Virus genome (UHGV): UHGV-0045429
Strand: one strand, 5' to 3'
From: a virus
Length of the DNA: 19,258 nucleotides
Shown here in pieces: positions 1-19,258 of this stretch. The position numbers and the translations under genes are program-made. How positions within the stretch are numbered: the first letter of the stretch is position 1; each line of letters opens with the position of its first letter. A model generated the notes under the pieces. The model ran no database searches. It had not been told where the DNA came from and was given only the letters and a program-made list of their open reading frames with translations.

Positions 1-675
1 TTAGCGCAGTTCAAAAAGATAACCTTGCCCACGTACGGTGGTGATCACCTCATGCGGATATTGCGCCTGAATTTTTTTACGCAGACGTCCCATCAGGACA
101 TCAATGGTGTGACTTTCACGCAGTTCGGCATCCGGGTAGAGCTGTAACATAAGCGAATCTTTACTAACGACTTTGCCGCTATTACGGATCAGCGTTTCCA
201 TAATGGTGTATTCGAAAGCCGTAAGTTTGATCACTTCATCGTTCACGGACAGTTCGCGGCGAGAAAGGTCCACCTGAAATGGCGGAAGCGAGATTATCTG
301 CGAGGCCAGGCCACTATTGCGGCGCATCAATGCCTGCATTCTTGCAACCACTTCTTCAATGTGAAACGGTTTGGTGACGTAATCATCTGCACCGGCACTG
401 AGCACTTCCACTTTGTCCTGCCAGCCTTCACGGGCAGTTAATACCAGAATGGGCAATGAAACGTCATTACTGCGCCAGCGGCGGATCAGTGATAGTCCGT
501 CTTCATCGGGGAGCCCTAAATCGACGATCGCAATATCCGGCAGGTGTTCATTAAGAAAATAGTCTGCTTCCTTTGCATCTTCTGCATCATCCACCTGGTG
601 GCCTAAATCCTGGAGCTGAACCTTAAGGTGGTGGCGTAATAATGCATTATCCTCAACAACCAGCACGCGCATCAT
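1..675 (-). CDS. phoP: PhoP, OmpR-family two-component response regulator (complete; stop codon at positions 1-3)
   Basis: 224-aa ORF; [20 protein letters not shown]... through ...TVRGQGY matches enterobacterial PhoP as I recall it (receiver domain plus winged-helix output). Tandem ATG ATG at 675/672 with GGGAGA upstream; true start may be 672. Confidence 0.9.
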
Positions 676-2306: not shown

Positions 2307-2534
2307 TCAAAAATCAGTAGTTGGTTTTGTCTTACGTTTTTGGCGCCGTTTTTTCTTCGGCTTGATGCTTGGTGGCATAACGAGCCGACGCGCTGGTGGC
2401 AGACTAAAAACATGCTCACTGATCTGTCTGCGTTCTCTCATTTTCCATACATGCCATGCCGTCCAGTCACACCCATCATCACAGATGTGCTGCGAGCGGA
2501 TCAGCGCTTCATCGCCGGTTAAATTCTCTGTCAC
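2307..2534 (-). CDS. Small hypothetical protein with Cys/His cluster and strongly basic C-terminus (KPKKKRRQKRKTKP)
   Basis: 75-aa ORF with a GTG start overlapping the stop of the upstream large ORF (GTGA coupling); sits between the RecE-like gene and xis. No family recognised. Confidence 0.35.
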   Translation of the reverse strand: MTENLTGDEALIRSQHICDDGCDWTAWHVWKMRERRQISEHVFSLPPARRLVMPPSIKPKKKRRQKRKTKPTTDF

Positions 2535-4399
2535 TGCTCCGCCTCCGCACTTATAACCCCAGCGGCCAGCGCAGCTGCCATGTGTGGCAATTCGTCAAAA
2601 TCACCTCGATATGCCGGGTTAGCGCACATCCCCTGCAGAGCCGCTAGCGTCAGCTGCTGGCGGTAGGTCAGGGTGGTAGACAGTTCACCATTGGTGACGT
2701 CGCTACCCGGTGAGGAAGCAGGCAATTCTGGTTTTTTCTTCGGTTTGGCTGTGACAACTGCTGGAGCTATCACTATCGGTTTTGGTGGCTCTGGTCGGCG
2801 ACATTCCACGATCGCATCGAGGGCGATTTTCTGACGCAAGGCAGCATCATCAGACCAGCCATCAAGAATTGTCGTTGCGACATCGTGAATTTCGTCATCG
2901 TTGAAATTAGGGGACAGACAAAATTCAGTGGTGGCGATATCGATGATCAGCAGAGGAAGAACGTCAGCGATAATATGACCGGTGCATGCCACAACGCCTT
3001 CCGCTTCTTCCTTACCCATAACGTCAGTACGTCCCGAAAGCAGGTCGTTCAGTGCGTGGGCAATCTCAATTTCATGATCATCCAGAAGTGGGCGACCGTC
3101 TTCCTGTTCGGTCACTTCCGTTTTTTCGCCCTCATTTGAGGCGCTATTGGCAAATGCTGCATCCAGTTCCCTGTTGAGCTCCGCAGCGCGAGACGGGCAG
3201 ACTGCCGGTATTTCAGTTCCGTTCTGTAATGTCTGTTCGGTTTGATCATTGAGGACCACCTCATTATTTTTTTGTGGCAGTGGGGCGGATGTACGGCCGC
3301 ATGCGATATCAACAATCAGTGGATCCGGATTTGCGTGATTTGACTCAGTCAGGTTTTTATTGATGTATTCGCGCAGTTTTACCGGATCGCGGTAGATATC
3401 CTCCGGAGAGGATTTAATTAGGGCAATAATTGCTGCGCGGGAAAAATCCAGAATACCGGGCGTGCGACGTAACTGTTTCCACCATGCAGTAAAGCGCTCA
3501 TCGGTTGCGGTTTCTTCCATTTTTTTGGCACGCTCATGAACGGCATGCGGCAGTTCGTAGATGTCGAAATCCATAGCAATACCCAGAATACCTATGCAGA
3601 CCTCGCGGCGCAGGGTTGCCAGCGTATGAGGTAGAACGCGATCGGTTGGGTTACCGCCGCCGAGCGTACAGCCTGATTCGGTGTGTGTGTCTTCACTGGT
3701 TTCAGGTTCGTCAGTTTTAAGTTTTACTGGCTCGCGTTTATCGGGCGGGGTCTCAGCCCATTGGGTAAACAGGTTTTTATAGTCTGGCCATTTAGCATTG
3801 TCGCGCGCCCTCTGACGCACCCAGGCCAGGCATTCGGTCTGTTTTTCAGGAAGCATGGCAAGAATGCGGGGTTCTTTGGCAAGACCCTCTGCCTGTTCGC
3901 GTAAAGGGCTAAATTCATCATCATTCAGCATGTCGATTAACTGGCCATACTGAGAAGGGGTGATTTCATCAATGACACCAAACACCGCGAGGCAGTATGA
4001 GCGGGCCAGCACATCCAGTTCTTTCACCGGTTTCATTTTTTCTTCTGTCGCGTCAGCATTGAGTTGTTCATTACCGCCAGCAAGCTCTGGCTCAACTATG
4101 ACGCGCTCTGGTTCACCTTTCTCCGCATTCCAGACAATTTCACCAGTGAAGAGGTCGGTATAGAACTGTCCCTCAACAGTGCAGAACATTCCTTCTTCTG
4201 TTTCCCAGACCTTGGGGGCGAAATAATCATCAGCATAATCTGGCGCGAACTGTATAAAGTCAGCATGCAGTAATGTCTTTGCAATTGTTTTATTTTTCGC
4301 TTGTTTAAAAGCAACATAAACCGGAAGTGTACTGTCTTTTTCAAGTGCACTTTTTTTCGGTTCGAATCTCCCGCCAAATTTTTTTAATCCAGTTGTCAT
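2531..4399 (-). CDS. Large acidic early-left protein resembling the N-terminal region of RecE (exonuclease VIII); no C-terminal nuclease domain recognisable
   Basis: Start taken at MTTGLKKFGG (ATG 4399, GAGG RBS 6 nt upstream). Segments GGGNPTDR...MDFDIYELPHAVHERAKKMEE and LREYINKNLTESNHANPDPLIVDIACGRTSAPLPQ match what I recall of the E. coli Rac RecE N-terminal region. No recT-like ORF follows. Confidence 0.6.
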   Translation of the reverse strand: MTTGLKKFGGRFEPKKSALEKDSTLPVYVAFKQAKNKTIAKTLLHADFIQFAPDYADDYFAPKVWETEEGMFCTVEGQFYTDLFTGEIVWNAEKGEPERVIVEPELAGGNEQLNADATEEKMKPVKELDVLARSYCLAVFGVIDEITPSQYGQLIDMLNDDEFSPLREQAEGLAKEPRILAMLPEKQTECLAWVRQRARDNAKWPDYKNLFTQWAETPPDKREPVKLKTDEPETSEDTHTESGCTLGGGNPTDRVLPHTLATLRREVCIGILGIAMDFDIYELPHAVHERAKKMEETATDERFTAWWKQLRRTPGILDFSRAAIIALIKSSPEDIYRDPVKLREYINKNLTESNHANPDPLIVDIACGRTSAPLPQKNNEVVLNDQTEQTLQNGTEIPAVCPSRAAELNRELDAAFANSASNEGEKTEVTEQEDGRPLLDDHEIEIAHALNDLLSGRTDVMGKEEAEGVVACTGHIIADVLPLLIIDIATTEFCLSPNFNDDEIHDVATTILDGWSDDAALRQKIALDAIVECRRPEPPKPIVIAPAVVTAKPKKKPELPASSPGSDVTNGELSTTLTYRQQLTLAALQGMCANPAYRGDFDELPHMAAALAAGVISAEAEQ

Positions 4400-4406
4400 A
4401 ATAACC

Positions 4407-4607
4407 TCAATAATGTTTATGTGAATGGCGTGCATTGCTTCTGCTTAAATTACAGCGCCGTGGTTCATGAATTTGTTTGTAGGAGATAGCATGCTCAAGG
4501 CTACAGAAATAAGCAGTCACTACTCTCTTATGAATTCTTTTTGTTGATTTATACATGGAATCATCAGAACTCCATTTTTTACAATACGGACAGCACTCAA
4601 GTGTCAC
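4407..4607 (-). CDS. Small Cys-rich ORF (possible zinc-binding protein); weakly supported
   Basis: 66-aa ORF with GTG start preceded by GGGAGGG; translation MTLECCPYCKKW... Position is analogous to the small ydaE/racC-type genes upstream of recE in Rac, but there is no sequence-level confirmation. Confidence 0.3.
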   Translation of the reverse strand: MTLECCPYCKKWSSDDSMYKSTKRIHKRVVTAYFCSLEHAISYKQIHEPRRCNLSRSNARHSHKHY

Positions 4608-6046: not shown

Positions 6047-6463
6047 TTATTTTACTCGGGTTTTTCTTTTTCTCTTCTCTGCTTCTAGCAGTTCTTGCAG
6101 GCGGATGCTGTTGTTTTCGTTACGAGCGCGTAACTCTTCGAGGAAGCCGATCTGATCTGACTCGGGAAGTGAATCAAAGAGTTCTAATAACTCTAATTGA
6201 ATATCAGTTAATTCTCTTTGCTCTTCTAATGGTACCGGCGCGCCCGGAATCTGGGCCTCATCACCAAAAAGAAGCCATGCTGGCGCGCACTGCAGGCCTT
6301 TGCTAAGGGCGAACAACCTCTTTCCCGCCGGTTGAGTTTCATCGCGTTCCCACTGGGAAATAGTTACGTGTGCGACCTTTACCAGTTTGCCCAAGGCAGC
6401 CTGGGAAAGGTTTAGCTCTTTGCGTCGCCTTAAAAGACGAGTACCGAAGGTTTCTTTATCCAT
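6047..6463 (-). CDS. DicA/RacR-type prophage repressor (XRE-family HTH, no S24 peptidase domain)
   Basis: 138-aa ORF; N-terminal HTH (LNLSQAALGKLVKVAHVTISQWERDETQP), LFALSKGLQCAPAWLLFGDE and LELLELFDSLPESDQ closely parallel E. coli DicA as I recall it. No recognisable RBS before the ATG. Confidence 0.85.
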   Translation of the reverse strand: MDKETFGTRLLRRRKELNLSQAALGKLVKVAHVTISQWERDETQPAGKRLFALSKGLQCAPAWLLFGDEAQIPGAPVPLEEQRELTDIQLELLELFDSLPESDQIGFLEELRARNENNSIRLQELLEAEKRKRKTRVK

Positions 6464-7241: not shown

Positions 7242-7484
7242 ATGCTTGCCCAGGAATTAGTAGACCGCATGAAAAATGCGATGAAGCACAAAGTACCGGC
7301 GGAGACAGTCGATCGCAGCGCTGAACTGATTCCGGGGATGAAATACCGCAACGAACGCGGACGCATGGTGACGGTAATGAGAGTTTCTCATCTTCGGGTT
7401 ATGTACCGATACGAAGGTTATCAGGACATCTGCGAGACAGGCCGGAGAGAGTTTGATTTGAAATTTAAGAAGGTGGAATTGTGA
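7242..7484 (+). CDS. Hypothetical phage protein (80 aa)
   Basis: ATG at 7242 with AGGAGG 5 nt upstream; tightly packed between the YdaT-like and HNH genes. Confidence 0.6.
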   Translation: MLAQELVDRMKNAMKHKVPAETVDRSAELIPGMKYRNERGRMVTVMRVSHLRVMYRYEGYQDICETGRREFDLKFKKVEL

Positions 7485-7486
7485 GT

Positions 7487-7840
7487 ATGAATTGCTGTGG
7501 CTGCCACAATCCTTTGGATGAGGACGAAATCTATAAACTTGCAGAGCGGTGCGGAATTTCGATCTGTGACCGTTGCGCGGGTAAGGTCGAACGCAGCTAT
7601 AACGAATGGCACGGTGGTCCTGGATATTTCCCCAAACCCCCTAAACACCCCCGCAAAAATATCTCACCGGGAGTGAGATTAAAAATTTATCGAAGGGATA
7701 AATACCGCTGTAAATATTGCGGCACCAGTGATGATCTCACCATTGATCATATTCAGCCTGTCTCTAAAGGCGGCGGAAATGAAGATGAAAATCTCCAGAC
7801 CTTATGTCGTGCCTGTAACCGCAGGAAGGGGGCGTCATGA
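7487..7840 (+). CDS. HNH endonuclease
   Basis: Cys-rich N-terminus plus H-N-H core ...DLTIDHIQPVSKGGGNEDENLQTLCRACNRRKG; ATG 7487 preferred over GTG 7481 because AGGTGGA lies 9 nt upstream. Confidence 0.8.
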   Translation: MNCCGCHNPLDEDEIYKLAERCGISICDRCAGKVERSYNEWHGGPGYFPKPPKHPRKNISPGVRLKIYRRDKYRCKYCGTSDDLTIDHIQPVSKGGGNEDENLQTLCRACNRRKGAS

Positions 7841-9684: not shown

Positions 9685-10043
9685 AACCAACCTACGAAGA
9701 ACTGACAGTACAGCTCGCTAACGCCGAGAGCAAGTGCAGGGAGCTGGTGGTGGAATGTTCGACAATCAAAGCCATGAGCGATTGCCTGTCTGAAGAGCTG
9801 CGTGGTTATGAATCTGATGGGGCGTTTGAAGGACCGAAGATGCATCTACTGTGGTGGAAAGCAGAAACTCCCGCGACCGACGCTTTCCTGGCTGAAGTGC
9901 GGGCGCAGGTCCACAAGGAAGGTGCTCACTTTGTAGCAAATAGAATGCTGGCCGCCACTCTTTTTGTTTTCGTTATCCTCAATGCACCCGCATGTAACCC
10001 GCTTCGGCGGGTTAGCTTCTTCTATCTGAGATTTTGTTGCTAA
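9681..10043 (+). CDS. Hypothetical protein (N-terminal coiled-coil-like, hydrophobic C-terminus)
   Basis: GTG start with AGGAG 9 nt upstream, overlapping the previous stop. The C-terminal ~15 codons read through hairpin 9996-10013, so the 3' end may be a fusion artefact. Confidence 0.45.
   Translation: MKPTYEELTVQLANAESKCRELVVECSTIKAMSDCLSEELRGYESDGAFEGPKMHLLWWKAETPATDAFLAEVRAQVHKEGAHFVANRMLAATLFVFVILNAPACNPLRRVSFFYLRFCC
9996..10013 (+). terminator. Hairpin AACCCGC-TTCG-GCGGGTT (copy a of a repeated terminator-type stem-loop); weak U-tract
   Basis: Perfect 7-bp stem with tetraloop; identical 18-mer recurs at 17742-17759. Confidence 0.4.
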
Positions 10044-10205
10044 ACGCAGTCTTACCGTTCTATCTGCAGGCATTGAGTAACTAAGTTCAAATGTTACATT
10101 GATCACGTTTTTTAACGTCTCAAAACCTCATTGGTATTGAGTTCCTTTGTGGTAATGATTTTGTTGGATAAAATAGCCAATATCTCAAGGAGTAGGTAAC
10201 CACTA

Positions 10206-10559
10206 ATGATCAATGATGTTAAAAATGCAAAAATTGAAGAATATTTCACCGTTCTAAAAGAAAAGAGCAGACCTCCAAGCAAAGGTGGGAACACAAAGGC
10301 TCTGCATGCCCACTACATTAAAATTGATGGAATGTTATACAGTTTTCTCGCGTTCGGTTCTAAGCAATGGATTTTCAAAACCGACCGAGTATCATTTAAG
10401 TTCGAAATGAACGGCGAATACAGGAATATTCTCCGGGAATCCATTAGCACTATTGATAGCAATGGGGAAGTAGTAATCAGAGGGTTGCGTGGTTTTAGCA
10501 AGAAGATAAGGACTGCTGATACGCGTTTACCAGCATCCAGAAGGGAATGCAGGGATTGA
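10206..10559 (+). CDS. Hypothetical protein (117 aa) in AT-rich cargo cassette
   Basis: ATG at 10206 with AAGGAG upstream; AT-rich codon usage unlike the flanking phage core (by eye); no family recognised. Confidence 0.6.
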   Translation: MINDVKNAKIEEYFTVLKEKSRPPSKGGNTKALHAHYIKIDGMLYSFLAFGSKQWIFKTDRVSFKFEMNGEYRNILRESISTIDSNGEVVIRGLRGFSKKIRTADTRLPASRRECRD

Positions 10560-10712
10560 ATATGTAATTTGTGTCGAATTTGCAATCATTAGCTAGCAAA
10601 TTGAATAAGTAACATAATAATTTTCATGAATAATATGAATAAAAAACCAGGATGACATACTAGGTGTTTCCGGTATCTTATCTATATATTATTTACGTTC
10701 AAGTGACTTTAA

Positions 10713-10874
10713 ATGACTGGCCAGCAACTTACTGAGCTCGAAATCGCTTATGGTGGGGAAGCTTACTCAGATAATGAAATTGATGCGAAAACAGTAGCTA
10801 AATCACTAAAGGATGTTGAACATTCAATGTCAGTGCATTCAAACGCCCTTCAAAGCGACGCTGATAAGTCTTAA
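10713..10874 (+). CDS. Small acidic ORF (53 aa) below the ORF-track threshold
   Basis: ATG 10713 to TAA 10872-10874 (MTGQQLTELEIAYGGEAYSDNEIDAKTVAKSLKDVEHSMSVHSNALQSDADKS), ending directly before terminator b; weak RBS. Confidence 0.3.
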   Translation: MTGQQLTELEIAYGGEAYSDNEIDAKTVAKSLKDVEHSMSVHSNALQSDADKS

Positions 10875-10889
10875 AGTTCGTGTACTGCT

Positions 10890-10912
10890 AACCCGCTACG
10901 GCGGGTTTTTTT
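10890..10912 (+). terminator. Rho-independent terminator (copy b): AACCCGC-TACG-GCGGGTT plus T7
   Basis: Perfect 7-bp GC-rich stem, tetraloop, run of seven T. Confidence 0.75.
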
Positions 10913-10968
10913 ATGCCCCTTACCAATAAATAATTAACCTGAATTATTGTAAATTATTGAGGTTTGTT

Positions 10969-11607
10969 ATGGGTGGCATTTTCGATGAATCATGGTCTGA
11001 GCAATTTACTCAACGCGTTGAGGCTTTGCGTAAACTGGATGATCAGTCCGTTACTCAACCGCTTTTCAGAGAAAAAGCGGATCTGATTTTTACTCAAATG
11101 GCTGACCGTGTTCGTTCGCGTACGCGACAGCAGCTCGGAGAAATCGACGTTAGCGGGATAACATTTGATTACGCAATCCGCTATTACGTTAATCACGACA
11201 CTGGTGATCCGGTTCTGGATCACCTTGTGTCCAGGGTAGGGCCATTCTGTGACCAGATGAAGATCAGCACGGAGGCGTACGGCACAGCGGCGTTCTGCTG
11301 CGCGCTCATGATGTTGAAAGGCGAGTTGCGTATAGCGTATGCATTTTTCAGCATGCTGATGCGCCCGCTCGTTTCTGCGTACAGGTATAACACCGACGCG
11401 AAACGACGTGGCTCTGCTGGTGGGCGCCCGACAAATCCACTTAAAAACGAGGCACTGGAACTGGCGCGGGTATTTACAAAATCCTATCCTGATTCAACGA
11501 TGGTGGCTGTTGTTAACGCCGTCATTTCTGACCTTGAATCTCACTACGTTGGCACTCCGTCAGCACGCACAATAAAGCGCTGGATTCAGCAGGACCGGAA
11601 AAAATAA
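10969..11607 (+). CDS. Hypothetical protein with C-terminal resolvase-type HTH-like segment (putative DNA-binding regulator)
   Basis: ATG 10969 (GAGG RBS; the track start at 10957 is a TTG). C-terminal GGRPTNPLKNEALELARVF...TPSARTIKRWIQQ resembles the GRP-led HTH of serine recombinases, but no recombinase catalytic domain is present. Confidence 0.55.
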   Translation: MGGIFDESWSEQFTQRVEALRKLDDQSVTQPLFREKADLIFTQMADRVRSRTRQQLGEIDVSGITFDYAIRYYVNHDTGDPVLDHLVSRVGPFCDQMKISTEAYGTAAFCCALMMLKGELRIAYAFFSMLMRPLVSAYRYNTDAKRRGSAGGRPTNPLKNEALELARVFTKSYPDSTMVAVVNAVISDLESHYVGTPSARTIKRWIQQDRKK

Positions 11608-12036: not shown

Positions 12037-12351
12037 ATGGCGCGTAAAAAATCGTATATAACCAAAGCCGAGCAACAGCACCTCGATCGCGTAGCGTCGT
12101 TGGGTTGTTGTGTCTGCAAAAATCTTGGTTACCCCGACTCTCCAGCGGGGATTCATCATATCCGAACCGGGCAGGGTGCAAGCCAGCGCTCCAGCCATTT
12201 CGAAACTCTGCCGTTATGCGCTGCCCACCACCAGACGGGTGGCTATGGCATTGCTTATCACGCTGGCCCTGAGATATGGGCGAAAAAATACGGCACCGAA
12301 ACTGAGCTATTAATTCAGGTTACGTCAGATTTAAACGGGGACTGGTCATGA
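12037..12351 (+). CDS. YbcO-like nin-region protein (putative nuclease, Cys/His-rich)
   Basis: 104-aa ORF directly upstream of and overlapping rusA, as ybcO-rusA in DLP12; CCVCKN...HHIR...PLCAAHH metal-binding-like pattern. Confidence 0.6.
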   Translation: MARKKSYITKAEQQHLDRVASLGCCVCKNLGYPDSPAGIHHIRTGQGASQRSSHFETLPLCAAHHQTGGYGIAYHAGPEIWAKKYGTETELLIQVTSDLNGDWS

Positions 12352-12707
12352 CCCGTTACCCCGTAACTCCAATCGGCAAACCCCGAATGACAAGAGCCGA
12401 CAAATGGAAGCAGCGCCCGCCGGTGCTCCGTTATCGTGTTTTCTGCGACGAGGTGCGCCTGCATGAAATCGTTCTGCCTGAAAGCGGCGCCCACGTTATT
12501 TTTGTTCTGCCAATGCCAGCGAGCTGGAGCCAGAAAAAACGCGCCAGCATGAACGGACAGCCTCACCAGCAAAAACCGGATATAGACAACCTCACCAAAT
12601 CCCTCATGGATGCCATTTACGACGACGACGCCCACATTTGGGACGTCCGTGCATCAAAAATCTGGGGTGATGAAGGCGCGATTATTATTCAGGAGGGCAA
12701 GGCGTGA
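12348..12707 (+). CDS. rusA: RusA-family Holliday junction resolvase
   Basis: 119-aa ORF; ...KPDIDNLTKSLMDAIYDDDAHIWD... matches the RusA acidic catalytic region as I recall it. Confidence 0.8.
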   Translation: MTRYPVTPIGKPRMTRADKWKQRPPVLRYRVFCDEVRLHEIVLPESGAHVIFVLPMPASWSQKKRASMNGQPHQQKPDIDNLTKSLMDAIYDDDAHIWDVRASKIWGDEGAIIIQEGKA

Positions 12708-14245
12708 TGCCCTTAACATACGGATCCGTATGCAGCGGAATTGAGGCAGCGAGTGTGGCGTGGGAGGTATTGGGCTGGCGGCCGTCATGGTTTTCTCAGT
12801 TCGATCCGGAACACAATTACAAAAACGGTCCTGATTTCCCGTCTGCGGTGCTGGCGCATCACTGGCCGCACGTAAAAAACCTTGGCGATATGACAAAAAT
12901 CGCCGCAGCAATCCGGCTCGGAGAAATTGAAGCGCCCGACGTTCTGGTAGGTGGTACTCCCTGCCAGGCATTCAGCATTGCTGGACTGCGTAATGGCCTG
13001 ACGGATTCACGCGGCCAACTAACCCTCGCTTTTGTAGAACTGGTAAACGCAATTGATGAAAAACGAAGAGAACAGGGAAAACCACCCGTCATTGTCGTCT
13101 GGGAAAATGTCCCCGGAGTATTCAGCAGCAGAGATAACGCTTTCGGATGTTTTCTTGCAGGGCTTGCCGGCGAAAGCCGTGAACTGGAATCACCAGGGCG
13201 AAAATGGACAAACGCTGGTTATGTGCTGGGACCAGAAAGGGCTGTCTGCTGGCGAGTGCTCGACGCTCAATTTTTCGGAGTGGCCCAACGACGCCGCCGT
13301 GTGTTTGTTATCGCAAGCGCTAGAGGGGATATCGATCCCGCAAAAATACTTTTTGAGTCCGAAGGCATGCGCCGGGATACTCCGCCGCGCAGAGAAACGG
13401 GGGAGATCGTTGCCGCCCTTATTGCAAACGGCGTTGGAGTGTGTGGCGCAGACGATAATCAGGGGCAGGCAGGGCACCTGATTGCCATGGCGCACGGACA
13501 GGCAGGGGCAGAAATTAAAACGGATGATTCCGCGCCTACGCTTACCTGTAACCATGAAGCGCCTATTGTTTTTAGCTGTAATGGACACGCATCGTTTACG
13601 CCGGGAGTCAGTGCTCTGCGAACTAAATCAGGCGCAGACCATGAAACGCTGGCTGTTCATGGTACGCAAGATCCCGACACTTTAAAGAACCTGGCACATA
13701 CGCTGGGTCGAAACCATGGGCAAGAGAATGCCGTTGCCTACTGTCTCCAGCATGCACAAATTAACCGGGCAGATAACGCTGGCCCACAGGGTAAAGGATG
13801 GCAAGAAGAATGCAGATTCACTCTGGATTCTCGTTCTTGTGCTGATGCAGTCGCTTATGCCTTCAAGGCCGGGCAGGGCGCAAAAGCGGGTGGCATTGGC
13901 TGGGCAGAGGAACAATCCCCGACACTGACGGCCGCCAGCAGTGGATCGAATTTATCCCCTTCAGTGGTGAAAAATATGGCCGTTCGCCGCCTTACTCCTG
14001 TCGAATGTGAACGCCTGCAGGGCTTCCCCGATAACCACACTTTAATCCCCCGTGATAAGCGTAAGCAGATTACTGCTGATGAGTACGCATACGCGCGCCA
14101 CCACAACCCAAAAATAACCGCAGAGGAAGCCTACAGGCTGGCGAAGGATGGTCCGCGCTATAAGGCCATTGGTAACAGCATGGCCGTACCGGTTATGCGC
14201 TGGATAGGAAGGCGAATCTCTAACGCTCTGGAGCAGACAATATGA
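12707..14245 (+). CDS. Orphan DNA (cytosine-5) methyltransferase
   Basis: Motif I-like YGSVCSGIEAA, motif IV GGTPCQAFSIAG, motif VI VVWENVPG, QRRRRVF, C-terminal RRLTPVECERLQGFPDNHT and GNSMAVPV; large variable region between. AGGAGGG RBS; start overlaps the rusA stop. No adjacent restriction endonuclease ORF. Confidence 0.9.
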   Translation: MPLTYGSVCSGIEAASVAWEVLGWRPSWFSQFDPEHNYKNGPDFPSAVLAHHWPHVKNLGDMTKIAAAIRLGEIEAPDVLVGGTPCQAFSIAGLRNGLTDSRGQLTLAFVELVNAIDEKRREQGKPPVIVVWENVPGVFSSRDNAFGCFLAGLAGESRELESPGRKWTNAGYVLGPERAVCWRVLDAQFFGVAQRRRRVFVIASARGDIDPAKILFESEGMRRDTPPRRETGEIVAALIANGVGVCGADDNQGQAGHLIAMAHGQAGAEIKTDDSAPTLTCNHEAPIVFSCNGHASFTPGVSALRTKSGADHETLAVHGTQDPDTLKNLAHTLGRNHGQENAVAYCLQHAQINRADNAGPQGKGWQEECRFTLDSRSCADAVAYAFKAGQGAKAGGIGWAEEQSPTLTAASSGSNLSPSVVKNMAVRRLTPVECERLQGFPDNHTLIPRDKRKQITADEYAYARHHNPKITAEEAYRLAKDGPRYKAIGNSMAVPVMRWIGRRISNALEQTI

Positions 14246-14877
14246 TGACCCCACGACAAAAACGAGCTCACAAATCAGCACTGGAACATGCGGCAGCCGC
14301 ACCGAATAAGCGCTGGCTGGGGAAATCAATACTGCTCACCGGTATTCAGTCAGCCTGGATCAAATCGCTACTCTGTGTTTGGGGTGAAAGTATTCGCGGT
14401 GGAATGGCACCAGGAACGCCGAAAGGCCACGCGTGCTGGCGGTCGCTAAAGGGTATGCGCTGGTCCGATAAATCGCTCGAGCGTTTTACAGAGGCACTGA
14501 CTCAGGCGAGAGGTGAGGGATTTAAAGGCGAGCTGGCGTTAAAACGTGCACACGCGATTCTCTGGCCCACAAAACCGGTTAGCGTTATCGACGAGGCTAT
14601 AACGGACGATGATGCAGATTTTATGGAAGCGTGCGTGCTGGAGGCGTTTGAAACAACGGATCCGGTTTACGTTATTGGGGTGAGCTACTACACGACGAGG
14701 AAAAAAATCTCGGACCTGACCCGGGATATTCAGCAGATAGCCCCCAGGCTGACTCCGGATGAGGCAAGAAAGCGCGTGCGCTGGTGTGTTGAAATATTCG
14801 GGGCGCGCGTGTATCTGGAGGCACGCCGTCAGTTACACGCTGATTTACAGAAATCAGAATCTGGCGGGAAAATATGA
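14242..14877 (+). CDS. Putative late-gene antiterminator (Q-like); assignment from position and size
   Basis: 211-aa ORF overlapping the MTase stop; GGAG RBS; sits where Q lies in lambdoid genomes (after the nin/rusA block). Family membership not confirmed by any motif. Confidence 0.45.
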   Translation: MMTPRQKRAHKSALEHAAAAPNKRWLGKSILLTGIQSAWIKSLLCVWGESIRGGMAPGTPKGHACWRSLKGMRWSDKSLERFTEALTQARGEGFKGELALKRAHAILWPTKPVSVIDEAITDDDADFMEACVLEAFETTDPVYVIGVSYYTTRKKISDLTRDIQQIAPRLTPDEARKRVRWCVEIFGARVYLEARRQLHADLQKSESGGKI

Positions 14878-15037
14878 TTTTTGAAATAGAAAATAAGCCG
14901 AATTAATTCAATAAAAATATATAATTACAAATGCCAACATGATTGCATTTGTGTTGGTTATAGTAATTGATTTGTTATATGAAAATGAAATGCTTATAAC
15001 AATCCGCGAAGAATAAAATTAATATATCGAGGACATA

Positions 15038-15334
15038 ATGAAAGAACTATCAGCAAAAGATTTACTACATAAATATTCAAGCCCGCTTGATTCAGTAAGC
15101 CTATTTAACGCAATGCATCTCGCTGGTTTAATTGAAGTAAAGGAATATATTTCCTCGACAGGAAGTGGTGAGATTAAGACCTATCGATCGCTAACTGAGA
15201 GCGGTTTGAAGTATGGGATCAATAAAAGATCTAGTTATAGTGATGCAACTGACTTAAAGTTTTTTCCTTCAAACTTCCATGAATTGTTGGTATTGGTATC
15301 AAAGGAGATTTTGAAGCATTCAGAGATGCTTTAA
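15038..15334 (+). CDS. Hypothetical protein (98 aa) in AT-rich cargo
   Basis: ATG 15038 with GAGGA RBS; preceded by a 160-bp AT-rich promoter-like region directly after the Q-like gene. Confidence 0.5.
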   Translation: MKELSAKDLLHKYSSPLDSVSLFNAMHLAGLIEVKEYISSTGSGEIKTYRSLTESGLKYGINKRSSYSDATDLKFFPSNFHELLVLVSKEILKHSEML

Positions 15335-15415
15335 GGTTTTGATTGAAATCGATGTAGTGGAAAAGAAAACCTCGGCCTGGCAACCGGGGTTCTATAGCGC
15401 GCAAACTTTACCTTT

Positions 15416-15628
15416 TTAGCGTGATTTTTTTCGTTTGAAAAACTCGTAAATTTCGATGCCAACAATAGCGATGGCGTAAAAAGGCCAAAGAAAAGAGGTT
15501 CTAACCGTATCCAGCAGGTCAAATTCCATATCGAGTATTCGATCCGCATGAACCAACAGTGCGAACATCACGATAAATCCCGCGACGTTTAAGGCTAGGT
15601 AAAGATAGAGACTCATGGCTAAATCCAT
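15416..15628 (-). CDS. Small hydrophobic (membrane) protein, convergent with the 98-aa ORF
   Basis: 70-aa ORF; two predicted hydrophobic helices (LYLYLALNVAGFIVMFALLV and FLWPFYAIAIVGIEI) and basic C-terminus KRKKSR; weak RBS. Confidence 0.45.
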   Translation of the reverse strand: MDLAMSLYLYLALNVAGFIVMFALLVHADRILDMEFDLLDTVRTSFLWPFYAIAIVGIEIYEFFKRKKSR

Positions 15629-15812
15629 TTATTAAGGTTTGCTGTGAGTCTACGTGCGATAACCACACAATTAAAAATTGGTATTACAGATCGATTTATC
15701 TTTATCGATCGTTGAAAACGATCGTCATGACACAAATAGCTTAGTGATTGATTGTTATTTAATCAGTTGGAGCCAATTATTTAGTAATTAGTGCTTATTT
15801 TATTAAGCGGCA

Positions 15813-15840
15813 TTGAAAACGAGCCATATTTATTGATAAT
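15813..15840 (+). promoter_or_regulatory. Sigma70-type promoter: TTGAAA (-35), 16-bp spacer, GATAAT (-10)
   Basis: TTGAAA at 15813-15818 and GATAAT at 15835-15840; predicted start about 15847. Confidence 0.4.
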
Positions 15841-15847
15841 TACCTCA

Positions 15848-15935
15848 TGCTTGGCAGAGCTGCGCCACGATGGCAGCGACGATAAGCGAACAATTTGAAC
15901 ATAACGAGAACCCCGCCAGCGCGGGGTTTTTGCTT
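15848..15935 (+). ncRNA. Candidate ~90-nt small RNA or late-leader transcript (promoter to intrinsic terminator, no credible ORF)
   Basis: Only a 12-codon ORF without RBS lies between the promoter and terminator; internal GCTGC...GCAGC stem. Entirely a sequence-based prediction. Confidence 0.3.
15909..15935 (+). terminator. Rho-independent terminator: CCCCGC-CAGC-GCGGGG plus T5
   Basis: Stem 15911-15916 / 15921-15926 followed by TTTTT at 15927-15931. Confidence 0.7.
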
Positions 15936-15946
15936 TCCGGCGATCC

Positions 15947-15989
15947 GACAGGGGTATTCGCGAACGTGCTACGGCACAGTACCCCTGTC
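15947..15989. repeat. 10-bp perfect inverted repeat GACAGGGGTA ... TACCCCTGTC (23-nt spacer)
   Basis: Arms at 15947-15956 and 15980-15989, immediately downstream of the terminator. Confidence 0.45.
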
Positions 15990-16175
15990 AGATCGTCGTT
16001 ATGGTTACTTCTATATGTCAGTTTAGGCCGACATCATTTGTGCCTATCCTTCTGGTCTATTGGATGAGTCAAACGTACCTTGAATGAGGATTGTAGGTGC
16101 CAGCCCGTAAGCCCTGCGGCATGGGGCTTAGTCGAAAAAACACCTCTTTTTTGCAACTTTTTATCACGTTTTCCC

Positions 16176-16223
16176 GTGACAAGATCCTGTTTACTGTTAG
16201 AATCACTCCACATGATTCATGTG
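16176..16223 (+). promoter_or_regulatory. Promoter of the two-gene operon with operator-like palindrome
   Basis: GTGACA (-35, 16176-16181), 16-bp spacer, extended -10 TGtTAGAAT (16195-16203); palindrome CACATG-ATT-CATGTG at 16209-16223 at the predicted start site. Confidence 0.4.
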
Positions 16224-16280
16224 ATGTGAATCTTTTAAAAAAAATAAAAACACATCTATTTCAACGAGTAAGCTCAAAAA

Positions 16281-17045
16281 ATGCAGGCTCAACCCAAGAC
16301 TAAACACCAAGAGTTGGTCGAGACGCTATCATTATATATAGACTCGCGAACCCCGTTAGAAGAACCTCTTTTGGGTGAAATCTTTCGCGATATCAATAAA
16401 CAGTCCGGTGCGTCTCGTGCGTATCTCATGGCTTTGTGGATGGAAGTTCAGAACAGACATGATGAGACAGTGGAATGGTATCTAGAGGCGATAGCTACTT
16501 CTGGTGAGCTCGCTTCTGTTGTCGCAGGTAACTATCTGAGTTATCTGAGTTGCTCAGCGCACAATCTTTTTCACAGAACAGAATTGTTCCGATTGGTAGA
16601 TATATATTGTACTAAGCGGATAAGAAAAATGGCCAGGAATGCAGCATTTTGCATGGGAAATGACCGGCTTGTTAACCGATTCACTGTGATGATGAAGGCT
16701 TTACTCGACGGCCAAGAGCGGGAAGAAATTGAGCGTGAGGGGGCAAAAATGGTGGAAGCTATTGTTACTTTTAAAGAAGCCACTAAGCTAACTTCATCTG
16801 AAATCCAGCAGTTGTGTGATTCAGCCGAACAGATTGCAAATAGCCACGGCGTGAATTGCGCTGGTGTTGAATATTTTCTGAGTGGTGGATATGACAACGC
16901 CATAATCCTATTTGCAGAAACCAGCGACGCTAGCACACTTACCACTATGAACATGGAACTCATAGGTTTGCTTGCTGATGATGCCTATATCGATCGTCCA
17001 TTTACCTCATGGTTTAAGAGCGCAGATATGAAGGATAGGATCTAA
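16281..17045 (+). CDS. Hypothetical protein (254 aa), first gene of cargo operon; no recognisable catalytic motif
   Basis: ATG 16281; stop TAA overlaps the start of the downstream gene (TAATG); lower GC than the phage core by eye; no Walker or nucleotidyltransferase motif. Confidence 0.7.
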   Translation: MQAQPKTKHQELVETLSLYIDSRTPLEEPLLGEIFRDINKQSGASRAYLMALWMEVQNRHDETVEWYLEAIATSGELASVVAGNYLSYLSCSAHNLFHRTELFRLVDIYCTKRIRKMARNAAFCMGNDRLVNRFTVMMKALLDGQEREEIEREGAKMVEAIVTFKEATKLTSSEIQQLCDSAEQIANSHGVNCAGVEYFLSGGYDNAIILFAETSDASTLTTMNMELIGLLADDAYIDRPFTSWFKSADMKDRI

Positions 17046-17446
17046 TGAGCGTATCAGGTCAAGATTTCATTGATTTTGCAGAGAAATGTCTCGATTTCGG
17101 TGATGAGATAGGCTTCAGGAACGTAGTTGGACGCTCCTACTATGGTGTTTACCATGAGATCTGCAGTAAACTTGAGCATTGCTATGTATTGACCTCTCAT
17201 GAGGGGGTGCGTCAGTATCTTATGAGCTCTTCACAGTGTAAAAATGAGCCGTTTGATAAAGCCGGGCTGAGGAGGATTGGTGTTTTCCTTCATAGTCTTC
17301 ACGTGCAAAGAAAGTGGGCTGATTACACACTTCAGCGCGATTTGGTTAAAACTGATGCTGAGTCGGCGCTCAATACTGCGAAACAAGTAATGGATGAAAT
17401 TAAGGCGTTGCATGAGGCAGTTTACCCTCCTCAGCCAGCAGCATAA
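17045..17446 (+). CDS. HEPN-like protein (133 aa) with N-terminal R-x6-H motif; candidate RNase toxin/effector
   Basis: GRSYYGVYH (R30 at 17132-17134, H37 at 17153-17155) fits the HEPN Rx4-6H signature; AGGA RBS; translationally coupled to the upstream gene; followed by terminator c. Confidence 0.65.
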   Translation: MSVSGQDFIDFAEKCLDFGDEIGFRNVVGRSYYGVYHEICSKLEHCYVLTSHEGVRQYLMSSSQCKNEPFDKAGLRRIGVFLHSLHVQRKWADYTLQRDLVKTDAESALNTAKQVMDEIKALHEAVYPPQPAA

Positions 17447-17460
17447 CTCACCAATTATTG

Positions 17461-17488
17461 AAACCCGCTACGGCGGGTTTTCTTTTTC
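17461..17488 (+). terminator. Rho-independent terminator (copy c): AACCCGC-TACG-GCGGGTT plus T-rich tail
   Basis: 18-mer identical to copy b (10890-10907); followed by TTTTCTTTTTC. Confidence 0.75.
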
Positions 17489-17541
17489 GCTTCATCAATT
17501 CCTGCTACGATTCCCTGTCTTTTACTGATGGGGATAGGGAT

Positions 17542-17709
17542 ATGAAGAAAGTTCTTGTTGTTTTATTGGTGTCACTTTTCTCACTGACAGCAACGGCAGC
17601 AAACAAGCCATGCTCAGGTAAGAAAGGCGGAATATCGCATTGTTCGGGTGAAAAGTTTGTTTGCAATGATGGCTCTATCAGCAAGTCTAAGAAGGTTTGT
17701 CAGAAATAG
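17542..17709 (+). CDS. Small secreted Cys-rich, Lys-rich protein (55 aa) with signal peptide
   Basis: Start at MKKVLVVLLVSLFSLTATAA (signal-peptide-like) then NKPCSGKKGGISHCSGEKFVCNDGSISKSKKVCQK (4 Cys). The track ORF from 17458 reads through terminator c and is an over-extension. Confidence 0.55.
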   Translation: MKKVLVVLLVSLFSLTATAANKPCSGKKGGISHCSGEKFVCNDGSISKSKKVCQK

Positions 17710-17740
17710 TTATTAATAAATAGCACTCGCCATCAAAATC

Positions 17741-17763
17741 AAACCCGCTTCGGCGGGTTTTTC
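17741..17763 (+). terminator. Rho-independent terminator (copy d): AACCCGC-TTCG-GCGGGTT plus T5
   Basis: 18-mer identical to copy a (9996-10013). Confidence 0.75.
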
Positions 17764-17828
17764 ACTCTCTAACGGATATGTTATTTTCATGCAATAAGAG
17801 CGATTAGTAAGATGCTGCTGGGGAGAAC

Positions 17829-17990
17829 ATGGATTCAACGGACGACGAAGAGAAACGCATAGAATTTGAAAAATTCATCATTGAAAGGTTTGGTGATACG
17901 GTTGACCTTCGCAGGGCGAAGCATGGCAATAACGGATATATTTCATGGGAAGCGGCGGTTGCTTGGGTTGTCTGGCAGGAGCGCTCATAG
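17829..17990 (+). CDS. Small ORF (53 aa) below the ORF-track threshold
   Basis: ATG 17829 to TAG 17988-17990, GGGAG 3 nt upstream; MDSTDDEEKRIEFEKFIIERFGDTVDLRRAKHGNNGYISWEAAVAWVVWQERS. Reads more coherently than the overlapping 83-aa track ORF. Confidence 0.4.
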   Translation: MDSTDDEEKRIEFEKFIIERFGDTVDLRRAKHGNNGYISWEAAVAWVVWQERS

Positions 17991-18319
17991 CACCATGAAA
18001 CAACGTCTACCTCTAGCGGGCGCTGATTTATTATGGCGCTGCCCGGAGCGTCCCGTCATTCACTATGGACTCCCACTTGGCAACGTCGTTTTAGAATTTG
18101 ATTTTGGTCCGCTATGAGCTGTGAGTTCAACTGATGGACGCAACACACTTATTGAACCGCTCTGCAGGATGGCTCGGAACCTGGATTATTATTCCAGAGA
18201 TTAGCGCTGGCTTTTTTCTCGCTTTCAGGCAGCAGAATGAGGCCAATTTTTAACACCCGACCATGGCTTGCACGGCCGGGTAATGGCTAAGAATGCGCGT
18301 AAACAAAAGGTTATGCCAC

Positions 18320-19258
18320 TTATGTGCCTAAATGTTTATTAAAGAATGGAATAATCTCCGATAGCGCTTGTGCCGTCGCTTCCGGACGATCATACAGATC
18401 ATAGTGAGATACCCCTTTCACAACCTGCAGCGTCTTCTCAACGGAGCGCGCGCGCTGATAAAGTTCATAACCGTCGCGATAAGAACCAAAACCACCAGGA
18501 ACATCGCCAATAACAATATGTAATGGTTGTATCAGTAGCTTTTCCGTAAAGGCAAAAGCATCCCAGTTTAAGGCCGGTGCGGTGCTGGTAAGTCGCAGTT
18601 TGTTAGGCGAGCCTGGCTTTTGCCCGCGCGGGGTCGTGTAGTAATCAACGGCCTCAATGAGGTCGATATCGTTGATGTTCGCATTCGCCAACGCTTCTGC
18701 ATTGTCAGGAATATAACCGACAACAAGAGCAGCGGCTCCCCGAGCTTCAGCAGTACGCTGTTTACCCAGCGCGTCAATCGTTCTGAGCGCGGCATCCGGA
18801 CTGGAATCCCCTTCACGCATAATGCGCCCATAATTGGCGGCAACCACAGTGGCAACGGCTTTGAAACGGTGATCAATGGTAGCGGCGCTAACGGCATATC
18901 CACCGCCGCCACAAACGCCTAAAACCCCAATACGATCTTCATCCACGTAGGCTAAAGTCACCAGATAGTCTATCGCGCAGCGAAAGTCTTCCACGCGGAT
19001 GGATGGATTTTCGCTAAAGCGTGGCTCACCCCCGCTTTCACCCTGGGTAGAGGCATCGAAAGCAAGAGTAATAAATCCAGCTTCAGTTAGCTTCTGGCCG
19101 TAGACTGCGCCAGATGTCTGTTCTTTACAACTGCTGATAGGATGGGCGCAAACAATCGCCGGGTATTTCTGGTTGGCATCAAATCCCTCAGGTAAGCGGA
19201 GAGTGGCGGCAACTTGCCAGCTGTTGTGCCGGAATGAAACGAGTTGTTCATGAGACAT
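18320..19258 (-). CDS. Alpha/beta hydrolase of the dienelactone-hydrolase type (Cys nucleophile)
   Basis: 312-aa ORF; nucleophile elbow GVLGVCGGGGYA (G-x-C-x-G-G). The start codon lies at the last three bases of the window, so the upstream region is not visible. Confidence 0.8.
   Translation of the reverse strand: MSHEQLVSFRHNSWQVAATLRLPEGFDANQKYPAIVCAHPISSCKEQTSGAVYGQKLTEAGFITLAFDASTQGESGGEPRFSENPSIRVEDFRCAIDYLVTLAYVDEDRIGVLGVCGGGGYAVSAATIDHRFKAVATVVAANYGRIMREGDSSPDAALRTIDALGKQRTAEARGAAALVVGYIPDNAEALANANINDIDLIEAVDYYTTPRGQKPGSPNKLRLTSTAPALNWDAFAFTEKLLIQPLHIVIGDVPGGFGSYRDGYELYQRARSVEKTLQVVKGVSHYDLYDRPEATAQALSEIIPFFNKHLGT

Follow-up and report, generated by a model that had tools for sequence, protein, structure and literature searches.

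What does a recombination protein of the RecE type do when it lacks its nuclease, and is a gene for such a protein anything other than debris? This question is raised by a 19,258-nucleotide viral sequence (UHGV virus genome UHGV-0045429; below, "the window" denotes this whole stretch), in which ORF (open reading frame) and family annotation recognizes a lambdoid prophage, represented by its left arm and early region. It contains a 622-codon gene (ORF622) whose product resembles the front part of RecE (exonuclease VIII, Exo VIII) of the Rac prophage. The N-terminal region of RecE (~590 residues) has no assigned function, yet it is needed for efficient linear-linear recombination in direct cloning, where full-length RecE performs better than the bare nuclease. 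Reviews from 2023 still call its function unknown, as a first-pass annotation of the window had also stated. That annotation had described ORF622 as retaining only this part of RecE, and had left open whether the gene is a deletion remnant or has an independent role. Our analysis favors the latter: ORF622 is probably an intact gene in the early left operon of a Rac/Qin-like lambdoid Citrobacter prophage beside phoPQ, and its product a selected branch of the RecE/YdfE family that acts as a non-catalytic scaffold or adaptor and bears a C-terminal protein-interaction module, here termed the tail. Selected natural proteins which keep the RecE front but carry the tail in place of the nuclease would indicate a nuclease- and RecT-independent role for this region.

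Relationship to RecE and absence of a nuclease or annealase

In a BLASTP comparison K-12 RecE 234-395 aligned with residues 235-395 of ORF622 at 45% identity (E=7e-36), the rest being not significant. The match to the NCBIfam Exo VIII equivalog PRK09709 is limited to residues 234-389 (121.3 bits versus a cut-off of 1269), and that to phrog_607 to residues 235-417. Profile-profile comparison extends this relationship considerably: the family profile (A1) and the profile of nuclease-bearing RecE-type proteins (A3) align with a probability of 100% and E=1e-64 over columns 4-501, that is, from the first residue of ORF622 to ~480, equivalent to RecE 1-~529. Because this alignment runs to ~480, the likeness to RecE covers the whole front of ORF622 and not the middle alone. 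The first-pass description of the protein as RecE-N-terminal-like is thus borne out by both pairwise and profile alignments, with the amendment that its N-terminal ~230 residues belong to the YdfE type and not to the PF06630 type seen in Rac RecE. ORF622 itself gave no Pfam match, including to PF06630 and PF12684, both of which are matched by K-12 RecE. Precomputed Pfam assignments for an identical protein and ~100 listed homologues record YdfE_N (PF27430) and YdfE_C (PF27432), and phrog_2489 matches residues 6-359. A full-length profile match was obtained to phrog_26058, a family of unknown function (E=6e-203, residues 1-426 and a second stretch), positions 581-625 of which are matched by the tail alone.

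The absence of the exonuclease VIII domain and of recT, both noted in the first-pass annotation, withstood every search made here. No Pfam match to the nuclease was obtained for ORF622 and no annealase family among the window ORFs, and tblastn searches with the RecE nuclease, RecT, Bet, Exo and Gam against the six frames of the window gave a best E-value of 0.03. Only the small gene orf75 separates ORF622 from the excisionase and integrase genes (xis/int). With the RecE nuclease as phmmer query, none of the full-architecture (N+M+C) representatives of the family (P0152-P0176) was matched. Weak phmmer matches to the nuclease on a few relatives bearing the tail or C-terminal region (P0184, 1.5e-08) were rejected, as the similarity of P0184 to RecE stops at RecE residue 588. 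These searches together show that ORF622 is not expected to be an exonuclease or to form a RecE-RecT pair. Rac RecE and ORF622 nevertheless share the same left-operon position, with a small Cys-rich ORF before the gene and xis/int downstream of it, as well as a SNEGEK-type linker motif. They differ in that Rac RecE possesses a PD-(D/E)XK nuclease (~589-866, PF12684) and a RecT partner, neither of which accompanies ORF622, whereas the C-terminal domain C1 and the tail of ORF622 are absent from K-12 RecE.

Domain architecture of ORF622

An AlphaFold2 model built from a 28-sequence alignment has a mean predicted local distance difference test score (pLDDT) of 75 and a predicted template modeling score (pTM) of 0.30, values which fit confident domains on flexible linkers. 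It comprises an N-terminal α/β domain (D1), two helical domains (D2 and M), a third, five-helix domain (C1) and the two-helix tail hairpin, joined by disordered segments (Table 1); D2, M, C1 and the tail contain helices only. In the model itself M spans residues 238-377, C1 441-533 and the tail 579-621. The equation of D1 with YdfE_N is supported by the lack of a PF27430 match in homologues without the first ~70 residues. D2 is homologous to K-12 YdfE 118-~200 (BLASTP E=5e-07) and to RecE ~130-225 (hhalign), and M shares with RecE the motifs TxSGxxxGGGNxTDR ... PGxLDYSRA ... HANPDP..VDIACGR. The linker motif SNEGEKxEV recurs in nuclease-bearing relatives (P0239, P0260, P0165; A3 consensus). 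C1 is an optional element, being also found in P0239, a 1015-residue RecE-like protein with a genuine nuclease. The prediction thus places a helical C1 and a tail hairpin at the C-terminus, so that the earlier statement that the protein retains only the RecE front is correct as to the presence of this front but overlooks the last ~190 residues, which consist of C1 and the conserved tail.

Could one of these domains harbor an unrecognized catalytic activity? D1, being mixed α/β and without a recognized fold, and C1 would be the candidates, and it is true that other lineages mount enzymatic modules on the same scaffold (the nuclease, and a NinC-like PP-loop domain described below). The eight invariant columns of A1 are R133 in D2 and L583, A586, A587, G590, C592, N594 and P595 in the tail. 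The only near-invariant acidic residues are D318 and E492, both of which lie in helical domains, and no His is near-invariant. Since conservation to this degree extends to two acidic residues only and to no His, the A1 pattern argues against a hidden active site, at least as far as it can be read from the alignment; there is no conserved His/Asp/Glu/Lys constellation and no enzyme match in Pfam, NCBIfam or the PDB. A cryptic enzyme therefore seems highly improbable. That no solved enzyme is matched in fold or sequence likewise supports the non-enzymatic role. No structural analogue of any ORF622 domain was found in the PDB or BFVD, and PDB sequence or profile matches were rejected as they reflected only Ala-rich compositional likeness to designed repeats and spidroin.

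The tail and its distribution

The tail (~45 residues) is the most conserved part of the family, with the consensus LTYRQQLT.AALQGLCANPA..[DE][DE][LI]P.MA..LA. ORF622 also conforms to the more general motif [YF].QQL..AA.QG[LM]CANP ... [DE][DE][LI]P.MA..[LI]A (invariant columns of alignments A1 and A2). The tail always occupies the C-terminus, on either YdfE-type or PF06630-type scaffolds and with or without M and C1. The exchange is clearest in P0184, a 683-residue E. coli-type protein that tracks K-12 RecE from residue 52 to 588, with >85% identity over the last 350 residues, and switches to the tail exactly at RecE 588, where the RecE nuclease begins. The 46 distinct tail proteins from IMG/VR comprise 25 with an N+M+C1+tail architecture, five with N+M+tail, three with N+C1+tail, four with a PF06630-type N+M(+C1)+tail, one with N+tail, and eight short forms (C1+tail or tail-only). 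These comparisons show the tail to be a portable module in the position of the nuclease.

A further variant is an 824-residue IMG/VR protein (L032:2670-5144), in which a NinC-like phosphoadenosine phosphosulfate (PAPS)-reductase (PP-loop) domain, 57% identical to NinC of the P22 group, stands between the YdfE/RecE scaffold with M and the tail. In this one relative a module like lambda/P22 NinC is thus fused to the scaffold, and ORF622 has no NinC-like domain; this fusion implies that the scaffold accepts alternative C-terminal cargo.

The tail additionally occurs as stand-alone proteins of 50-90 residues in a Serratia prophage, Cedecea, Enterobacter and cyanobacteria. In Serratia quinivorans (L012/L013:6001-6240) the recE slot, flanked by a DUF1482 gene and by xis/int, holds a 79-residue ORF consisting of the tail only, which may be either a gene in its own right or the end left over from a scaffold gene lost by deletion. 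The cyanobacterial versions are 65-76 residues long and show 41-48% identity (L015:4583-4780 from a Spirulina sp. metagenome-assembled genome; P0299-P0301; FRQQLIIAAVQGLCANP...). More distant small phage proteins (phrog_2201, of unknown function) have an AxQGLCANP core and a C-terminus related to the tail. In the predicted first helix of the tail the conserved residues form two stripes (L583/A586/A587/G590/N594 and Q582/Q589/C592/A593), which suggest one intramolecular and one external contact. We also considered the '[DE][DE][LI]P' loop as a mimic of the tip of single-stranded DNA-binding protein (SSB; DDDIPF); this was rejected, the loop being internal and a helix N-cap, with its Pro lost in the cyanobacterial homologues.

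The sequences of tail-type proteins are already in databases, partly mislabelled as Exo VIII, and we found neither the nuclease-to-tail exchange nor the tail mini-domain described. Literature searches for tail-type proteins, the exchange or YdfE function returned nothing relevant, with the qualification that some of them were swamped by 'receptor' matches.

Conservation and selection

A search of 5.8 billion proteins listed ~100 full-length homologues of 598-622 residues, 74-99% identical to ORF622, from Citrobacter and Salmonella. Such full-length relatives are frequent in Citrobacter, Salmonella, Lelliottia, Buttiauxella and on IMG/VR prophage contigs of 40-58 kb. Among the 146 clusters formed by 50%-identity representatives in an exhaustive search, ~20 share the N+M+C architecture at identities as low as 35%, and another 18 instead possess a true RecE nuclease. 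Tail-bearing genes were further found at 48 IMG/VR loci, many on prophage contigs of the same 40-58 kb range.

Pairwise Nei-Gojobori estimates against five homologues gave ratios of nonsynonymous to synonymous substitution rates (dN/dS) of 0.13-0.4 in D1/D2, M and C1 and of 0-0.12 in the last 48 codons, the tail having the lowest values in ORF622. The linker between C1 and the tail (residues 536-574) is the sole freely evolving part (0.65-1.2 versus close alleles). M is mosaic between alleles: dN reaches 0.56 in M versus 0.02-0.04 in the flanks of the same pair, and in the comparison of ORF622 with L006/L007 it is ~0.55 versus 0.02-0.05, which indicates cassette-like recombination among functional alleles inside the gene.

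These values bear directly on the alternative that ORF622 is a decaying, functionless recE remnant from which the nuclease and recT were deleted. Such remnants do exist, K-12 ydfE being an IS2-truncated one, and the prophage of the window may itself be incomplete, with no lysis or structural genes recognized between the Q antiterminator gene and the terminal hydrolase gene (Table 1). Yet dN/dS is well under 1 in all folded parts, the frame is intact throughout the listed homologues, the C-terminus is a conserved module and not random read-through, and the architecture recurs in large prophage contigs and viable phages. Decay is thus barely credible. Because its architecture is kept, its dN/dS is low, and it is present in large prophage contigs and, as a type, in isolated Stx (Shiga toxin) phages, ORF622 is, judged from sequence, not a deletion remnant but a separate branch of the RecE/YdfE family that is maintained by selection. 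Of the two options offered by the first-pass annotation, then, the independent role is favored and the remnant disfavored, given purifying selection along the whole length and an architecture retained down to 35% identity.

The eponym of YdfE_N and YdfE_C, K-12 ydfE (b1577; L067:4079-4999), is an annotated pseudogene of the Qin prophage which overlaps IS2 (IS2E); it is a truncated fragment, whereas ORF622 is intact and ends in C1 and the tail. The slot of ORF622, after dicB/ydfD-type genes and before xis/int, is also that of K-12 ydfE and of a PPompW/Sakai-type protein of ~820 residues annotated as a putative exonuclease, likewise with no recT. The PPompW copy we examined has a frameshift and is a pseudogene; for a nuclease in the ~820-residue PPompW-type relatives the only evidence is the annotation of a relative on a Pantoea plasmid. 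Genes annotated as RecE-like exonucleases without an adjacent recT are thus represented by this frameshifted copy and by one in Citrobacter phage Chris1 (by annotation only).

Genomic context in relatives and in Stx phages

We compared 56 loci, namely the window and 55 related ones (seven genome loci and 48 viral loci). The first-pass annotation had proposed looking in related prophages for full-length recE-recT at this position; no RecT or RecE nuclease lies within ~5-7 kb in the 55 related loci. An RcbA homologue directly follows the tail-type gene in several loci, as it follows recT-ralR in Rac, and on this account the tail-type gene can be said to sit in the recE slot. The only widespread neighbors are the repressor, a YdaT-like protein, xis and int.

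A different context, with gam-bet-exo downstream, is the usual one in E. coli. The 682-residue WP_001271581.1, labelled a 'RecE family exodeoxyribonuclease', has the tail at its end and no nuclease match, and its gene is followed by those for Gam, Bet and lambda Exo. Of 5426 complete E. coli genomes, 79 carry a gene of this type, O104:H4 outbreak strains among them, and gam-bet-exo lies immediately downstream in 25 listed of the 79 matching E. coli/Shigella genomes and in four phages. Stx-type phages with a tail gene annotated as Exo VIII are 75/02 Stx, POCJ13, phiSTEC1589-Stx1c and PhiR5_2; tail-type loci include L068:2960-5008 (E. coli 2013C-4282) and those of phages KF766125.2, KJ603229.1, PQ600364.1 and PV340546.1. 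Like ORF622, the E. coli/Shigella Stx tail-type proteins (including P0184) combine a RecE-type scaffold and M with the tail and have no nuclease. Unlike it, they have the Rac RecE (PF06630) N-terminus and no C1, and gam-bet-exo lies downstream of their genes; downstream of ORF622 there are only orf75, xis and int. In keeping with this, tblastn with C1 and tail of ORF622 recovered no isolated phage, the Stx phages being found only with the E. coli-type tail. The 'exodeoxyribonuclease VIII' labels on the E. coli/Stx tail-type genes probably represent systematic mis-annotation, and prophage 'recombination module' calls resting on Exo VIII/RecE-family labels would be unreliable. As some members occur in phages growing on E. 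coli K-12 (PhiR5_2), the tail-type family offers a direct experimental handle on the RecE N-terminus.

The gam-bet-exo linkage raises the possibility that tail-type proteins are accessory subunits acting in trans, whose tail docks a separate exonuclease or annealase (lambda Exo/Bet/Gam or a co-resident RecET) onto the scaffold and so recreates RecE non-covalently. The superiority of full-length RecE over its bare nuclease in linear-linear recombination and the precision of the swap at the module boundary would fit such an arrangement, as does the location of the E. coli/Shigella genes. Across the 56 loci, however, the Red genes (gam-bet-exo downstream) accompany the tail in only two, both of them viral, and RecT or a RecE nuclease in none. 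Moreover, purifying selection in ORF622 is strongest on the tail although no frame of the window encodes an exonuclease or annealase, and for this reason a partner limited to a minority of phages cannot explain selection on the tail. We consider this alternative unlikely.

Possible roles of the tail-type proteins

Based on these observations we favor a non-enzymatic scaffold or adaptor function for ORF622. The RecE-type scaffold is kept as D1, D2 and M on disordered linkers with their conserved short motif, and the PD-(D/E)XK exonuclease module is replaced by the helical C1 and the ~45-residue two-helix tail. The tail may dock a partner, either host-encoded or encoded elsewhere by the phage, or may self-associate, and would thereby take the place of the tetrameric nuclease ring which holds the N-terminal arms of RecE together. 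The N-terminal scaffold might then supply the same activity as in full-length RecE, where it boosts linear-DNA recombination. A host partner or self-association fits better than a phage partner encoded in cis, because no neighbor co-occurs with the tail and most loci lack a phage exonuclease or annealase.

Several points weigh against this scaffold proposal. The pTM of the model is low. The role of the tail as an interaction module draws on anatomy and conservation, and the notion that the protein works like the RecE front end borrows from a region which has itself no assigned function. In all-against-all clustering of neighbors over the 56 loci no gene accompanied the tail throughout, and no partner emerged. 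Finally, in the one usable contig the cyanobacterial tail gene directly follows a ParA/CbiA-like ATPase gene and no prophage context is evident, which does not obviously fit a phage-specific role of the tail.

Alternatively, the tail might itself be the effector: a small inhibitor or decoy for a conserved host protein, such as a DNA-end-processing or replication factor, with the scaffold only positioning it. Phage host-takeover proteins are typically 50-90 residues long, and in some prophages the tail stands alone as an early-operon protein of just this size. In the pL operon the gene has kil/dicB-type genes around it, the polar residues Q581, Q582 and N594 as well as C592 are very strongly conserved, and the clustering of the 56 loci revealed no cis-encoded partner. 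On the other hand, the tail has no similarity to any known inhibitor, and its cyanobacterial homologues would demand a very widely conserved target. An anti-host role of this kind is not likely in our estimate.

A broader extension of the scaffold proposal, possible but doubtful, is that the RecE/YdfE N-terminus constitutes an autonomous targeting scaffold with swappable effectors (nuclease, NinC-like domain or tail), and that the tail is an undescribed, widespread mini-domain binding a conserved host genome-maintenance factor, making the tail-type proteins host-takeover and not recombination factors. If the swappable-effector scaffold were real, these proteins could reveal what the RecE N-terminus does.

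Prophage setting and neighboring genes

The features of the window are collected in Table 1.

Table 1. Coordinates of genes in the window and of the predicted parts of ORF622
Feature	Window position	Strand	ORF622 residues	Remarks
Response regulator, PhoP by context	1-675	minus		PhoQ next in source contig
Tyrosine integrase	746-2035	minus		Closes the left operon with excisionase
Excisionase	2032-2310	minus		Directly after orf75
orf75	2307-2534	minus		75 residues; between ORF622 and xis
ORF622, tail-type RecE/YdfE-like protein	2531-4399	minus	1-622	622 residues + stop; open frame 2531-4435
Tail, predicted two-helix hairpin	2534-2677	minus	575-622	LTYRQQLTLAALQGMCANPAYRGDFDELPHMAAALAAGVI; helices 579-593 and 601-621 (AlphaFold2)
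Pro/Lys-rich disordered linker	2678-2794	minus	536-574	pLDDT 31-39; fast-evolving
C1, predicted five-helix domain	2795-3088	minus	438-535	pLDDT 85-92; phmmer mapping
Motif SASNEGEKTEV in disordered linker	3107-3139	minus	421-431	pLDDT <50 around
Isolated helix			402-417	AlphaFold2
M, predicted helical domain	3215-3697	minus	235-395	pLDDT 76-94; RecE 234-395 match
D2, predicted helical domain	3722-4036	minus	122-226	pLDDT 82-93; invariant R133
D1, predicted mixed α/β domain	4100-4399	minus	1-100	pLDDT 71-88; precomputed Pfam YdfE_N
orf66, putative zinc finger	4407-4607	minus		Small, Cys-rich (CxxC ... FCSxxH); ends 8 nt upstream of ORF622
Several small ORFs	between ORF622 and repressor	minus		
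Helix-turn-helix repressor	6047-6463	minus		
Cro, YdaT-like protein		plus		
HNH endonuclease	7481-7840	plus		
O-like replication initiator, DUF1627 protein		plus		
Ref-like nuclease, RusA, C5 DNA methylase	12037-14245	plus		Block before Q
Q antiterminator	14242-14877	plus		
α/β-hydrolase	18320-19258			On the other strand from the ORFs past Q

The ATG start of ORF622 at 4399 is preceded by a GAGG Shine-Dalgarno sequence (TTGAGGTTATTATG), and the start MTTGLK is common to most of its homologues. The GTG start of orf75 overlaps the ORF622 stop (GTGA, window 2531-2534), an overlap kept in homologous loci that suggests translational coupling of the two genes. The predicted orf75 product has a very basic C-terminus (KPKKKRRQKRKTKP), and family searches gave no assignment for it. 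In Rac the slot held here by xis/int after orf75 is taken by recT-ralR-rcbA. Upstream of ORF622, orf66 is the positional counterpart of Rac YdaE; BLAST gave no significant match between the two, the likeness being in the Cys pattern only, and equivalent Cys-rich ORFs lie upstream in loci L009 and L010. Both small genes are lineage-specific, orf66 being conserved in 17 of the 56 loci and orf75, downstream, in 21. BLASTP of the small neighboring ORFs against RacC, YdaE, KilR, RalR and RcbA yielded no significant match, nor did a search of the PADLOC-DB defense models with ORF622, orf75, orf66 or the neighboring small ORFs.

The prophage is integrated right beside phoP-phoQ (window 1-675; L065:13725-15862), a site also used in C. 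braakii (L006) and Lelliottia (L008). A protein identical to ORF622 is encoded on a 1.57 Mb contig of assembly GCA_902363475.1, and the nearest named homologues, 99% identical, are from Citrobacter youngae.

On the plus strand, the HNH endonuclease gene is flanked by the genes for the YdaT-like protein and the O-like replication initiator, and the block before Q encodes a Ref-like RecA-dependent nuclease, RusA and a C5 DNA methylase of 513 residues. Downstream of Q (window 14878-19258) no lysis, terminase or structural genes were recognized; there are only ORFs of unknown function (16281-17709; phrog_17809/5176/6000) and then the α/β-hydrolase gene. The prophage may thus be truncated, or this region may be a moron region. 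Two low-GC stretches of the window (10000-11000 and 14500-16000; 0.38-0.41 versus ~0.50-0.54 around them), with ORFs lacking a family assignment, are typical of morons.

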